DNA of 32,000 nucleotides. Source: an uncultured archaeon (lineage in GTDB: Archaea; Asgardarchaeota; Thorarchaeia; Thorarchaeales; Thorarchaeaceae). Under the pieces are notes generated by a model. That model did no database searches, was not told the origin of the DNA, and saw nothing but the letters and a program-made list of their open reading frames with translations. Made by a program: the position numbers and the translations under genes. Below are positions 17,326 through 20,579 of the stretch, one piece after another. The DNA lies in contig CAYHAA010000008.1 of NCBI GenBank assembly GCA_964354495.1, forward strand, positions 50,954 through 82,953, given 5' to 3'. Position 1 is the first letter of the stretch. The number at the start of each line of letters is the position of its first letter.

Positions 17326-17434
17326 TGTGAGGAGTTACCTTGCTACAGCTAGTATGTACTATCAGCATGCTTTCTTAATACACCTGACAACTATTCCGCA
17401 TGTCGGCTAATTGTGACTCATCAACACACTTAAA

Positions 17435-17448
17435 TGAATCTGGATTCA
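17435..17448. promoter_or_regulatory. Palindromic operator TGAATC-TG-GATTCA upstream of mrp
   Basis: Perfect 6-2-6 inverted repeat directly after TTAAA (17430-17434). Recurs twice at 20541 and 20566. Confidence 0.8.
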
Positions 17449-17491
17449 AAATCACTAATAGAGCCTGAACCCATGAGGGTGATGAAACCAG

Positions 17492-18322
17492 ATGACAGCG
17501 AGTGCTGAGCAAAGAGAGAGTATGATTCAACCCGAAATCAGGGAGCGAATGAAACATATCAAACACAAGGTTGTAGTGCTATCTGGGAAGGGAGGGGTCG
17601 GAAAGAGCACAGTCTCCGCGAACCTAGCCATGGCGTTCATCAAGTCGGGCGCAAGCGTCGGCATACTCGATGTCGACATATATGGTCCGAGCATTCCAAA
17701 GATACTCGGTCTCGAAGGGGAGCATCCGAATGTTTCAGGCAAGTCCCTCATGCCTGTGTCAGGTCCACTTGGAGTCAAGGTCATGAGTATGGGATTTCTG
17801 CTAAGGAATGCGGATGATGCAGTGGCATGGCGTGGACCTCTTGTTGCAAAGGCAATCACTCAGTTCCTCGGTGATGTGGAGTGGGGCGCCCTCGATGTGC
17901 TAGTGGTTGACCTGCCGCCAGGAACGGGGGACGAGATACTGAGCATTCTTCAGTCAATCCCGGGGGTCGATGGTACGTTGATAATCTCCACTCCACAAGA
18001 GGTCGCGGTTCTCGGCGCACGAAGAGCTATTCAGCTCACACAGAAGATGGGTGTTGGTGTACTAGGCGTTGTGGAGAACATGGGTGAGTACGTATGCCCA
18101 AAGTGCGGAGAGCGCTACAGGATGTTCAGGGAGGGTGCAGTCGAGCGAGCTGCGAGTGATTACGGAGTGCCATATCTAGGGTCATTGCCCTTGGACCCAA
18201 GGATTGGGAACATGTCAGACGAGGGGACCCCGTTCGTCATAGCTGCTCCAGATTCAGAGTCGACCAAAGCGTTTCTAGCATTGACCGAGCGGATTGGCGT
18301 CCAGATCGGGCTTCGGAAGTAA
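17492..18322 (+). CDS. mrp: Mrp/NBP35 (ApbC) Fe-S cluster carrier ATPase
   Basis: SGKGGVGKSTV, DVDIYGPSIP, MSMGFLL, WRGP, DLPPGTGD, STPQ, VENMG..CPKCG. Confidence 0.96.
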   Translation: MTASAEQRESMIQPEIRERMKHIKHKVVVLSGKGGVGKSTVSANLAMAFIKSGASVGILDVDIYGPSIPKILGLEGEHPNVSGKSLMPVSGPLGVKVMSMGFLLRNADDAVAWRGPLVAKAITQFLGDVEWGALDVLVVDLPPGTGDEILSILQSIPGVDGTLIISTPQEVAVLGARRAIQLTQKMGVGVLGVVENMGEYVCPKCGERYRMFREGAVERAASDYGVPYLGSLPLDPRIGNMSDEGTPFVIAAPDSESTKAFLALTERIGVQIGLRK

Positions 18323-18341
18323 CAATGAACTGGTAGTTGCC

Positions 18342-19181
18342 ATGATCGTAGCAGTCGTTTCGGGAAAGGGCGGCACTGGAAAGACCACTGTCGCAGTGAA
18401 CCTTGCCCTCTCTCTCGGCCACGCCAAGATTCTTGACTGCGATGTCGAAGAACCCAATGCGTACCTTCTTTTGGGTGAGCCAGAAACAGTCACCGAAACT
18501 GTGCAACGGGCAGTACCCGTGATTGACAGAGAACTCTGTACCCTTTGTGGCGAGTGCGCCAAGTTCTGTCGTTACAACGCATTGTTCGTTGGACCAGAGA
18601 ACGTCGTAGTGTTCGAGAAGATGTGTCACTCTTGTGATGGATGTCAAGTTGTGTGTCCCACAGGGGCCATCTCAGAGGTGAACAGAAGCATCGGCAGATT
18701 GCACACAGGACAAGTGAATGGCATCTCACTGGTCTATGGCGAGCTGGACGTCGGGGAGCCAGTTGCTACTACTCTCATAAGAGCTGTCAAGTCACAGATT
18801 GACAGGAACAATGTCAACATCCTTGACGCGCCGCCTGGAACAGCTTGCCCTGTTGTTGAAACGATGCGCGGGAGCGACTATACTGTCTTAGTGGCAGAGC
18901 CAACACCATTCGGTCTTCACGACCTCTCGCTCGTTCTCGACATTGTCGAACAGCTGGGCATTCCTCACGGAGTTGTCATCAACCGTTCAGGTCTAGGTGA
19001 TAGCTCCATGCACGACTTCTGTGAGTCAAGGAATGTACCTATTCTGCTTGAGATACCATTCGACCGGATGATTGCGGAGCTCTACTCGAGGGGAGTGCCA
19101 TTCGTCACCTCCATGCCAGAGTGGTCATCAAGATTCTGTGAAATGTATGAGATCATCTTGGAGGCGGCATGCAACGTATAG
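18342..19181 (+). CDS. MinD-superfamily P-loop ATPase with inserted 2x[4Fe-4S] ferredoxin (COG1149), paralog 1
   Basis: SGKGGTGKTT, DCDVEEPN, CTLCGECAKFC and CHSCDGCQVVCP, DAPPGTACP, EPTPFGLHDL. Start set at ATG 18342. Confidence 0.93.
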   Translation: MIVAVVSGKGGTGKTTVAVNLALSLGHAKILDCDVEEPNAYLLLGEPETVTETVQRAVPVIDRELCTLCGECAKFCRYNALFVGPENVVVFEKMCHSCDGCQVVCPTGAISEVNRSIGRLHTGQVNGISLVYGELDVGEPVATTLIRAVKSQIDRNNVNILDAPPGTACPVVETMRGSDYTVLVAEPTPFGLHDLSLVLDIVEQLGIPHGVVINRSGLGDSSMHDFCESRNVPILLEIPFDRMIAELYSRGVPFVTSMPEWSSRFCEMYEIILEAACNV

Positions 19182-20040
19182 TCAGATAGCAGTAGTGAGT
19201 GGTAAGGGCGGTACCGGGAAGACAACAGTCTGTGCCGCCTTCGCAGCCATATCAAAGAACTCTGTCCTTGCAGACTGTGACGTTGATGCTCCAGACCTCC
19301 ACATACTGCTACAGCCCCGGATTATCGAAGAAATACCTTTCAGCGGCTCTGAAGTGGCCGTGATCGACAAAGAGGTCTGTACTCTTTGCGGGCTGTGTGA
19401 AAAGAGGTGTCGTTTTGGGGCTGCACACCCTCCGAGAATCGATGTAGTCGCATGCGAGGGGTGCGCAGTGTGCGAGTACGTGTGCCCAGTTGATGCAGTG
19501 ATAATGAAGCCCAGAATTTCAGGAAACATCTATGCCTCGACGACGCGTTTCGGTCCAATGTCTCATGCCAGACTCTTGGCTGGAGAAGGCAACTCTGGGA
19601 GGCTTGTGACTGAGGTTCGGAAGAGGGCATCCAAGATGGCCTTGGAACAGCGCCTTAGCACGATACTAATAGATGGTTCTCCAGGAATTGGATGCCCGGT
19701 CATTGCTACACTCACGGGTGTTGACCTTGCGGTCATCGTGACGGAGCCTACGCTCACAGGAGCACACGACATGCAGAGAGTCTTGGAGCTGTGTAGTAGA
19801 CTCGATGTTGGGACTGCTGTAATCATCAACAAGTACGACATCAATCCAGATATGACGGAGCAGATCAAGAGACATTGTACTGAATCAGGCGTATATGTAC
19901 TTGGCAGAATCCCGTTCGATTCTGTCATGACTCGTTCGATGATGGCATTACAGACAATTCCTGAGTTTGCGCCTGCCAGTGAGATAGCTCTTCTGATGAA
20001 GGACATGTGGGACCTAATTCTCGATCTGGCGTCAGAGTGA
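19147..20040 (+). CDS. MinD-superfamily P-loop ATPase with ferredoxin insert (COG1149), paralog 2; start ambiguous
   Basis: SGKGGTGKTT, DCDVDAPDL, CTLCGLCEKRC and CEGCAVCEYVCP, DGSPGIGCP, TEPTLTG.HD. Nearest in-frame ATG is 19147. The RBS-led ATG at 19169 is out of frame (see findings). Confidence 0.9.
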   Translation: MRSSWRRHATYSQIAVVSGKGGTGKTTVCAAFAAISKNSVLADCDVDAPDLHILLQPRIIEEIPFSGSEVAVIDKEVCTLCGLCEKRCRFGAAHPPRIDVVACEGCAVCEYVCPVDAVIMKPRISGNIYASTTRFGPMSHARLLAGEGNSGRLVTEVRKRASKMALEQRLSTILIDGSPGIGCPVIATLTGVDLAVIVTEPTLTGAHDMQRVLELCSRLDVGTAVIINKYDINPDMTEQIKRHCTESGVYVLGRIPFDSVMTRSMMALQTIPEFAPASEIALLMKDMWDLILDLASE

Positions 20041-20095
20041 CAGATGCTCATCCTATGGTGAACCTTTATTGCCATGTGTCAACCTTCTTGGAAAC

Positions 20096-20509
20096 ATGCC
20101 CCGAAGAAAGATGCACAGAATCGTCGACCGCGAACCACCGGTATCAGTGTTCAAACCGGCAGGCGTACCCGCGAGAGACCTTGAAGAGATACTGCTTGCT
20201 GTTGAAGAGTTCGAAGCACTGAGACTCTCAGATCATGAGGGGCTTGACCAAAGAGCCGCCTGTGAGGCCATGAAGATCAGTCAGCCTACGTTCAACAGGA
20301 TTCTTGGTTCTGCAAGAAGAAAGGTCTCTAGGGCGCTTGTGAAGGGCTGTGTTCTGAGAATCGAGGGTGGCAACTACGTCTTGGGCGATGGCACTGGAGG
20401 CCTTGAATGCGAAGTCTGCGGACGTATGCTTGAGTCTTCCTCAGATGAGGCTGCCCCGTGTCCGGAGTGTGGCTCGACCAAGTTCCGCTGGGCTCGCAGA
20501 CGTGACTGA
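20096..20509 (+). CDS. DUF134 (UPF0251) HTH DNA-binding protein with C-terminal Zn ribbon
   Basis: MPRRK..R, FKPAG, EEFEALRL.D.EGL.Q..A...M.ISQPTF.RIL..ARRK, IEGG, CEVC..CPEC. Start set at ATG 20096. Confidence 0.92.
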   Translation: MPRRKMHRIVDREPPVSVFKPAGVPARDLEEILLAVEEFEALRLSDHEGLDQRAACEAMKISQPTFNRILGSARRKVSRALVKGCVLRIEGGNYVLGDGTGGLECEVCGRMLESSSDEAAPCPECGSTKFRWARRRD

Positions 20510-20540
20510 TGAATCCTGAGTGCAGACCGCAGAGTTTAAA

Positions 20541-20554
20541 TGAATCTTGATTCA
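20541..20554. promoter_or_regulatory. Palindromic operator TGAATC-TT-GATTCA
   Basis: Follows TTTAAA (20535-20540). Arms extend to 8 bp (AATGAATC/GATTCATT). Confidence 0.8.
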
Positions 20555-20565
20555 TTATATTAATA

Positions 20566-20579
20566 TGAATCTGGATTCA
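20566..20579. promoter_or_regulatory. Palindromic operator TGAATC-TG-GATTCA
   Basis: Identical 14-mer to 17435-17448. Separated from the 20541 site by the all-AT 11-mer TTATATTAATA. Confidence 0.8.

Follow-up and report, generated by a model that had tools for sequence, protein, structure and literature searches.

Archaeal repressors that act by occluding promoters, such as MDR1, LrpA, Phr and NrpR, belong to the DtxR, Lrp, ArsR-like or NrpR families, which have winged-helix folds; they bind palindromes that either lie downstream of the TATA box, ahead of the transcription start, or overlap that start, control small local regulons, and are frequently autoregulated. Among the carriers of iron-sulfur (Fe-S) and other metal clusters, the closest described gene set is the orange protein (ORP) cluster of Desulfovibrio vulgaris Hildenborough, which encodes Orp3, Orp4, Orp5, Orp8 and Orp9/MrpORP, with Orp3 and Orp4 being paralogous MinD-type ATPases that carry two [4Fe-4S] motifs each (PMC6345978), and whose regulator, OrpR, is a sigma-54 enhancer-binding activator (PMC8359166). 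Here we describe an ORP-like locus on a 32,000-nucleotide stretch of DNA from an uncultured archaeon of the Thorarchaeaceae (Asgardarchaeota), referred to below as the window. Three copies of the palindrome TGAATC-N2-GATTCA precede two operons within a 5.5-kb island, one of which ends in a gene for a DUF134 (UPF0251) protein of a long type, and we propose, with a probability of roughly 0.7, that the palindromes are operators of this long DUF134 protein, which would act as a repressor blocking the loading of RNA polymerase.

The D. vulgaris and window loci share a Mrp/NBP35-type ATPase, two paralogous MinD-type ATPases with two [4Fe-4S] motifs each, and NifX-like modules, and both are organized as two adjacent operons with one dedicated local regulator and a regulon consisting essentially of those operons only. 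They differ in that the window operons are co-directional whereas those of D. vulgaris are divergent, in that the window Mrp has no fused NifX-like domain, and in the addition of a radical S-adenosylmethionine (SAM) gene. The regulators also differ, with D. vulgaris using OrpR, which is unrelated to DUF134 and has an Fe-S PAS sensor, together with integration host factor, whereas the window candidate is a small helix-turn-helix (HTH) protein at TATA-box promoters, probably a repressor. The island has no gene for an enhancer-binding protein, and regulation of the sigma-54/OrpR kind is not indicated in this archaeal genome with its promoters of the TATA-binding protein (TBP) type. The genome encodes three TBP genes, so that it is appropriate to describe its promoters in terms of TBP and transcription factor B (TFB); McrA was not found in it. 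In comparison with MDR1, LrpA, Phr and NrpR, the DUF134 HTH is of the sigma-70 region 4 type, and the core of its putative operator is common to many archaeal phyla.

An exact search of the window finds TGAATC-N2-GATTCA at 17435-17448 (TGAATCTGGATTCA), 20541-20554 (TGAATCTTGATTCA) and 20566-20579 (TGAATCTGGATTCA), the same positions at which an initial annotation of the sequence had reported three intergenic palindromes beside TATA-like tracts. All three copies are indeed intergenic, and the adjoining A/T tracts are TTAAA, TTTAAA and TTATATTAATA. The elements concerned, together with the gene for the candidate regulator, are as follows.

17430-17434, plus strand: TATA-like element TTAAA of the Mrp promoter; orthologues have TTTAAA, CTTATA or TTTATAA directly 5′ of the operator
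17435-17448, no strand assigned: putative operator O1, TGAATCTGGATTCA, 43 nt before the Mrp ATG
20060-20071, plus strand: candidate internal promoter element GAACCTTTATTG, 24 nt before the DUF134 ATG, without an operator
20096-20509, plus strand: long DUF134 protein, 137 aa (PF02001, E 9e-21)
20535-20540, plus strand: TATA-like element TTTAAA of the NifX-like promoter; family consensus tgaNtTTT(T/A)TA directly 5′ of the distal operator
20541-20554, no strand assigned: putative operator O2 (distal), TGAATCTTGATTCA; tandem pairs recur at NifX-like promoters across the family
20555-20565, plus strand: A/T-rich spacer TTATATTAATA between O2 and O3, which may be a second TATA box; most but not all relatives have an A/T-rich spacer here (locus L241 is an exception)
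20566-20579, no strand assigned: putative operator O3 (proximal), TGAATCTGGATTCA, 59 nt before the NifX-like ATG

By chance 0.01 copies of the motif are expected in the window, and none of 100 dinucleotide-preserving shuffles reached three. The initial annotation had found no other full copy in the window, and this extends to the whole source genome (3,295,382 bases in 51 contigs, 97.7% complete, the window being part of contig C8), where the only three perfect copies are those in the island. Fifteen further sites match with one mismatch, 12 of them inside long open frames and all of them lacking a TATA-like flank; a filtered scan at two mismatches likewise yielded no convincing promoter site, and closer inspection of C19:5679 and C10:11837 did not make convincing sites of them. 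All of these one- and two-mismatch sites are either coding or TATA-less, and we have therefore not accepted any of them as additional regulon members. The motif thus does not behave as a repeat scattered through the genome; such scattering is what the initial annotation had named as counting against its proposal.

To see how widely the sites are conserved we compared the promoters of NifX-like and Mrp orthologues in a survey of the family that covers 81 genomes and 17 sampled genera. The exact pattern recurs in 24 genomes of the same genus, frequently as tandem pairs 23-25 bp apart, and the hits are of two kinds. Those of the first kind are at the promoters of NifX-NifX-ATPaseA-ATPaseB operons and of Mrp operons that end in radical SAM, in the context TTT(T/A)TA-TGAATCNNGATTCA-TTATAA. 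Those of the second kind, which include many perfect matches in the relatives, are inside open reading frames (ORFs) and have no TATA flanks; they fit the number expected by chance given that the half-site is about two-fold over-represented, and we rejected them as regulatory sites. A control with the reversed pattern is a poor null here for compositional reasons.

Conservation at orthologous promoters, on which the initial annotation had made its proposal depend, holds up well: with at most one mismatch, a site precedes the NifX-like operon in 33 of the 37 examined genomes that have a long DUF134, representing 10 of 12 genera. In most genera the distances upstream of the ATG are about 39-45 nt for the distal operator and about 15-21 nt for the proximal one, and O1 is kept upstream of the Mrp orthologues in the genera g1, g20, g21 and g22. 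Two genomes that had seemed free of the motif (G007 and G015) have one-mismatch tandem pairs at the same promoter. Because the proteins encoded behind these shared sites are only 45-65% identical across the family, neutral intergenic DNA would not have preserved a 12-base palindrome, and an inverted repeat that is kept at orthologous promoters and not found elsewhere in the genome has the distribution of an operator; this argues that the palindromes have a genuine cis-regulatory function. In relatives, the gene divergent from the NifX promoter encodes an Obg-like GTPase or an acetyl-CoA synthetase; these neighbours vary between genomes and are not counted as part of the regulon.

A perfect TGAATCTTGATTCA is also present at another location in three genomes (loci L043, L045 and L051 of G018, G019 and G014, respectively), flanked by a DEAD-box/DUF5814 helicase gene on one side and an unannotated ORF of 97-126 aa on the other. 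It has no TATA-like flank there, and it may be coding or represent a further site.

A quite different explanation for the repeats is that they form a structural nucleic-acid element, such as a hairpin between O2 and O3 that acts in termination or RNA stability, or that they are a recombination site or the remnant of a repeat. O2 and O3 follow shortly after the DUF134 stop codon and can pair into a hairpin (-16.7 kcal/mol, z = -3.1), and they belong to a module that is an insertion. But two copies of a palindrome will always be complementary to each other, so that the hairpin is an automatic consequence of there being two, and we have rejected it as a terminator; O1 by itself gives no fold (z = 0.7), the pair is not followed by a U-tract, and an Rfam search of 16800-23000 gave no match at E up to 1. 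Many orthologous promoters have only a single site, or have the pair beside a divergent gene that needs no terminator, and the sites are neither at the ends of the island nor repeated elsewhere in the genome. We consider a structural element to be extremely improbable.

The DUF134 proteins of the family are of two paralogous forms. The long form has 137-150 residues, a recognition helix SQPTF[NH]R (SQPTFNR in the window copy) and a C-terminal CxxC...CPxCG ribbon, and the short form has about 100 residues, the helix SRGTIWR, and no ribbon. The source genome has the long paralogue only, together with the operators, and a whole-genome search shows that its DUF134 gene is single-copy. In five genomes (three of g17, one each of g28 and g29; 93-99% complete) the NifX-NifX-ATPaseA-ATPaseB operon is present and is followed by the short form; no long DUF134 was found in any of the five, and in none of them is there a site within two mismatches at the NifX-like promoter. 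The g17 promoters retain TTTTTTA-TGAATCAGGAT but have lost the second half-site. In a tree built from NifX1 and NifX2 the g17, g28 and g29 genomes do not form one clade, although the resolution is weak, and more than one loss is thus likely. Genomes of the window's own genus with the short form only have neither the operon nor promoter-type sites. In one relative (G013) a deletion has removed the operon from its place between the genes for long DUF134 and acetyl-CoA synthetase; the tandem operators left behind have decayed, with two mismatches each (L093:4658-4695), and a perfect site remains 12 nt before the ATG of the regulator (L093:5247-5260).

In the relatives the short DUF134 often closes the NifX-NifX-ATPaseA-ATPaseB operon (for example L054:6768-7028 and L236:4789-5073), and it persists without a TGAATC operator.

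Sites are also found at the regulator's own gene. Of 55 distinct regions upstream of long-DUF134 genes, 16 contain a site within two mismatches, compared with about 0.5 expected from the genome-wide frequency of sites, and in nearly all of the 16 the site is 4-12 nt upstream of the ATG and immediately follows a conserved GGAAnCCTTTTT element, just behind a TATA-like CTTTTT. Such sites were seen in g15, g23, g25 and some of g1, irrespective of the gene neighbourhood. We suggest that the GGAAnCCTTTTT element is a TFB-recognition element (BRE) and TATA box, in which case the mRNAs would be leaderless or short-leadered and the operator would lie between the TATA box and the start.

In the more general form GAAnCTTT(T/A)T(T)G the element precedes nearly all long-DUF134 genes of the family (about 50 relatives), at a distance of 20-35 nt from the ATG, and we infer that its counterpart at 20060-20071 is a promoter element of the window's DUF134 gene. 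If GAAnCTTT(T/A)T(T)G corresponds to BRE/TATA, the long-DUF134 mRNAs as a group would be leaderless or nearly so.

The association of the motif with DUF134 extends beyond the Thorarchaeota. In a cross-phylum sample collected by pattern search with one genome per species, comprising 46 DUF134 loci from outside the Thorarchaeota, the 150 nt preceding the DUF134 start contain TGAAT-N4-ATTCA, mostly as TGAATA-N2-TATTCA, at a density of 2.6 per kb, compared with 0.28 per kb elsewhere. The sites are typically 2-7 nt before the DUF134 ATG, or form tandem pairs a few hundred bases upstream at the head of the operon. At least six archaeal phyla are represented, with the motif-bearing groups being Bathyarchaeia, Nanoarchaeota, Woese- and Aenigmatarchaeota, Iainarchaeum, Methanosarcinales and Methanobacterium. 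All of the motif-associated archaeal proteins share the helix SQPTF[HN]R, while bacterial homologues (from Planctomycetota, Bacillota, Acidobacteriota and Brocadiaceae) have SR[PQ]TF[GQS]R, and the motif is absent from the bacterial loci in the set. The window site thus appears to be the Thorarchaeota variant, with C and G at positions 6 and 9, of a putative operator used throughout the family; we found no change in the recognition-helix residues that accounts for TGAATC as opposed to TGAATA. Short archaeal forms in other phyla have the same core motif at their promoters and no Cys4 ribbon, which suggests that the ribbon is not needed for recognition of the site; it may instead serve in sensing or oligomerization.

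These distributions bear directly on the possibility that the sites are true operators for some other transcription factor, encoded elsewhere, with DUF134 being a passenger or having another job. Linkage and co-inheritance do not identify the binder, and many g1 long-DUF134 genes have no motif at their own promoter. Such a factor would nonetheless have to operate on a motif that vanishes where the operon is kept and the long paralogue is absent, and that tracks DUF134 start codons in at least six archaeal phyla with varied neighbours. The flanks of the island are also shared with a close relative (G012) that has no sites, and the initial annotation was right in naming DUF134, with its Zn-ribbon tail, as the only HTH protein of the locus: it is the sole DNA-binding protein in the island, and no other HTH gene was found within 5 kb on either side. 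We therefore regard a different binder as quite unlikely. The choice of DUF134 as the cognate regulator in the initial annotation is instead strengthened, since the operator tracks the long paralogue, several genera carry the motif at the promoter of the regulator gene itself, and motif and protein are found paired in other phyla as well.

An AlphaFold2 model of DUF134 built from 29 sequences (predicted local distance difference test score, pLDDT, of 86) has an N-terminal strand region, helices at residues 36-47, 52-59 and 63-83, a small sheet, and the ribbon. The three helices form an HTH of the sigma-70 region 4/DeoR type, which in a local match superposes on solved DNA-bound examples. The best match in both structure and sequence is DeoR (SorC family, HTH subclass; PDB 7bhy and 8r7y): superposition on the DeoR DNA-binding domain with its operator (7bhy) gives a root-mean-square deviation of 0.8 Å over 39 residues at 36% identity with a Foldseek probability of 0.99, and the deviations from region 4 of the extracytoplasmic function (ECF) sigma factors sigma H, SigR and CnrH are 0.7-1.9 Å. 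Profile searches match DeoR at E 0.018 and the Zn ribbon of RNA polymerase subunit P at E 0.007; the CxxC...CPxCG motif is conserved, with weak matches to ordinary Zn ribbons (RNA polymerase subunit P and HypA). No homologue of the whole-chain fold was found in the PDB with Foldseek.

DeoR of Bacillus subtilis reads the palindrome TTGAAC-AAA-ATTCAA (PMC11229326). The two systems are alike in placing a dimer of DNA-binding domains, which for DUF134 is a prediction, on an inverted repeat with TGAA/TTCA, and in having a repressor, presumptive in our case, whose operator overlaps the promoter. The TGAA and TTCA cores are 6 bp apart at the DUF134-associated site versus 5 bp in the DeoR operator. 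DeoR is bacterial, however, and has a large sugar-phosphate effector domain and acts as a tetramer on a 39-bp operator, whereas DUF134 has no effector domain and combines the HTH with an N-terminal strand region and the Cys4 ribbon, so that only the HTH of about 40 residues is comparable.

The prediction of a DUF134 homodimer gave a score of 0.74, compared with 0.26 for the best control; for calibration, among proteins of solved structure, 21 of 30 homodimers and none of 23 single-chain proteins reach that mark. At least 85% of the contacts are common to three runs, with pLDDT of at least 68, and the predicted interface is symmetric (residues 16-26, 39-49 and 71-89). The models thus support DUF134 being a symmetric dimer suited to binding a palindrome.

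These observations can be assembled into a simple scheme. A symmetric DUF134 dimer would bind each operator with each of its sigma-70-region-4-type HTHs reading one TGAAT half-site. The operators start directly 3′ of conserved TATA-like elements, and while their positions relative to the transcription starts are predictions from the sequence, the bound protein would span roughly -23 to -10 of the promoter because every operator begins directly after the TATA box; at the NifX-like promoter the second copy would be at or just past the transcription start. Bound DUF134 would then keep RNA polymerase, and perhaps TFB, off the promoter, and the location of the sites just downstream of the TATA box fits such a repressor. 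The units repressed would be Mrp-ATPaseA-ATPaseB-DUF134 and NifX-NifX-radical SAM, which together would constitute an ORP-type set of carrier proteins for Fe-S and metal clusters. DUF134 would itself be autoregulated through O1 by read-through, with a weak operator-free promoter of its own probably supplying basal expression. The conserved Cys4 ribbon is an obvious candidate for the sensor through which the repressor might be released.

The same geometry could be read in the opposite sense, with long DUF134 binding as an activator or dual regulator, for example by stabilizing TBP/TFB on weak TATA boxes. The operators touch the TATA box, so that contact with TBP or TFB is geometrically possible, and the TATA element of the window's Mrp promoter, TTAAA, is a weak one. 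Characterized archaeal activators, however, bind upstream of BRE/TATA, while binding downstream of the TATA box, ahead of the transcription start, leads to repression, which counts against activation, as does the position of the second NifX operator at or after the predicted start. Moreover, lineages without long DUF134 have kept the operon and its TATA box, which would be unexpected for an obligate activator and is better accounted for by loss of a repressor than by loss of an essential activator. Activation by DUF134 therefore seems very unlikely to us.

Several observations count against repression by the island's own DUF134. Long DUF134 is co-inherited with the other genes of the island, so linkage alone cannot name the binder, and the correlation of presence and absence is drawn from related genomes that may represent no more than two or three independent losses. 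Among the genera that have the long paralogue, two depart from the consensus: g24 has two-mismatch sites only, and in g19 the half-sites TGAAT(C/A) and (G/T)ATTCA are about 14-16 bp apart rather than 2. Most g1 long-DUF134 genes, including that of the window, have an operator-free promoter of their own, and autoregulation is accordingly not universal. The dimer is the prediction of a model and not a measurement, and the fold matches are local only, with a Foldseek E of about 0.2.

In one g19 locus (L242) the half-sites form a perfect 26-bp palindrome with a ATATGCGCATAT centre upstream of the NifX-like gene; the spacing in this locus and in L249 may reflect a different binding mode or a composite site.

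An extension of the repressor proposal is that the Cys4 ribbon acts as the sensor by gaining or losing an Fe-S cluster, iron, or another metal supplied by the repressed carriers, which would make the island a self-contained and transferable feedback circuit. We put this forward only tentatively and think it rather unlikely in this specific form.

Comparison with the closest same-genus relative in the sample (G012) bears on how the locus came to be where it is. The two genomes are 88-91% identical in DNA sequence on both flanks, and G012 joins the window's position ~17344 to ~22866 with a 45-bp gap between; it has no DUF134, no operon with MinD-ferredoxin ATPases, and no sites. The island and the remaining genes within it are as follows.

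17337-22865, plus strand: 5.5-kb island with both operons, the regulator gene and the three operators, an insertion relative to G012
17492-18322, plus strand: Mrp/ApbC-type Fe-S cluster carrier ATPase (Mrp/NUBPL; PF10609, E 3e-96)
18294-19181 (start approximate), plus strand: MinD/CbiA-type ATPase A with an inserted 2x[4Fe-4S] ferredoxin domain, Orp3/Orp4-like (PF01656 and PF00037)
19147-20040, plus strand: MinD/CbiA-type ATPase B with an inserted ferredoxin domain, a paralogue of A (PF01656 and PF00037)
20639-21076, plus strand: NifX/NafY-type cofactor-binding protein 1 (PF02579, E 5e-22)
21073-21438, plus strand: NifX/NafY-type cofactor-binding protein 2 (PF02579, E 7e-15)
21469-22674, plus strand: radical SAM enzyme of unplaced subfamily (PF04055, E 1e-12; weak sub-threshold NCBIfam matches only)

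The island DUF134 shares 80% identity with its g22 counterpart, 73% with the one in g21, and at most 68% with those within g1; the gene order of the island is that of g21 and g22, and its NifX pair groups with theirs with support of 100/98. This affinity, together with the insertion or deletion relative to G012, suggests that the regulator, the three operators and their targets were acquired laterally as one 5.5-kb unit, a self-regulated cassette. No direct repeats were seen at the borders of the island. Just to its left a 143-aa ORF (16894-17325) has no Pfam or NCBIfam match; it is kept in G012, where the alignment runs through the stop codon.

The genes form two predicted transcription units, Mrp-ATPaseA-ATPaseB-DUF134 and NifX-NifX-radical SAM; a look-up of public RNA runs listed none that contains the locus. 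The gene identities in the initial annotation were correct, but the DUF134 start as first called, TTG 20069, was not, as alignment with 19 relatives places the start at ATG 20096 (MPRRK...); ATPase B probably starts at the in-frame ATG at 19147. DUF134 is clearly a member of PF02001 (74.7 bits with a cut-off of 27, E 8.9e-21, over residues 12-104 of the ORF as first called), whereas its 58.5 bits against NCBIfam PRK04217 (NF003257), which has a cut-off of 115, indicate that it is related to, and not an equivalog of, that archaeal subfamily. The best NCBIfam match of Mrp is the MrpORP model NF041136, with 322.7 bits over positions 1-248 of 365; this is below the cut-off of 450 because the C-terminal NifX-like domain is missing, so that Mrp is not assigned as a MrpORP equivalog. 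The separate NifX-like genes match positions 265-364 of the same model, and the window Mrp appears to be like the N-terminal domain of MrpORP. ATPases A and B both match PF01656 as well as PF00037 and other Fer4 families and are 31-39% identical to one another; they are thus two paralogous MinD-type ATPases with a 2x[4Fe-4S] insert, as is characteristic of Orp3 and Orp4.

A palindromic operator behind a TATA box with probable autorepression is a conventional mechanism; it is the protein family that is uncharacterized. Full-text literature searches, which included COG1342, PF02001, COG1149 and COG1433, found no paper on the function or DNA target of DUF134/UPF0251, a family that is widespread in anaerobic archaea and bacteria and for which this locus provides a testable role. 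The locus is also well suited to inexpensive experiments, with a protein of 137 residues, a 14-bp site present in three natural copies, and natural loss-of-regulator controls. The ORP-type carrier genes are only partly understood even in Desulfovibrio, and the arrangement described here suggests how Asgard archaea, which have no sigma-54, control an ORP-like system, and that a regulator, its operators and its targets can move between genera as one 5.5-kb unit. If the Cys4 ribbon does act as a sensor, the circuit would measure the cluster-loading state of the cell, and DUF134 operons throughout the Archaea would work on the same principle.

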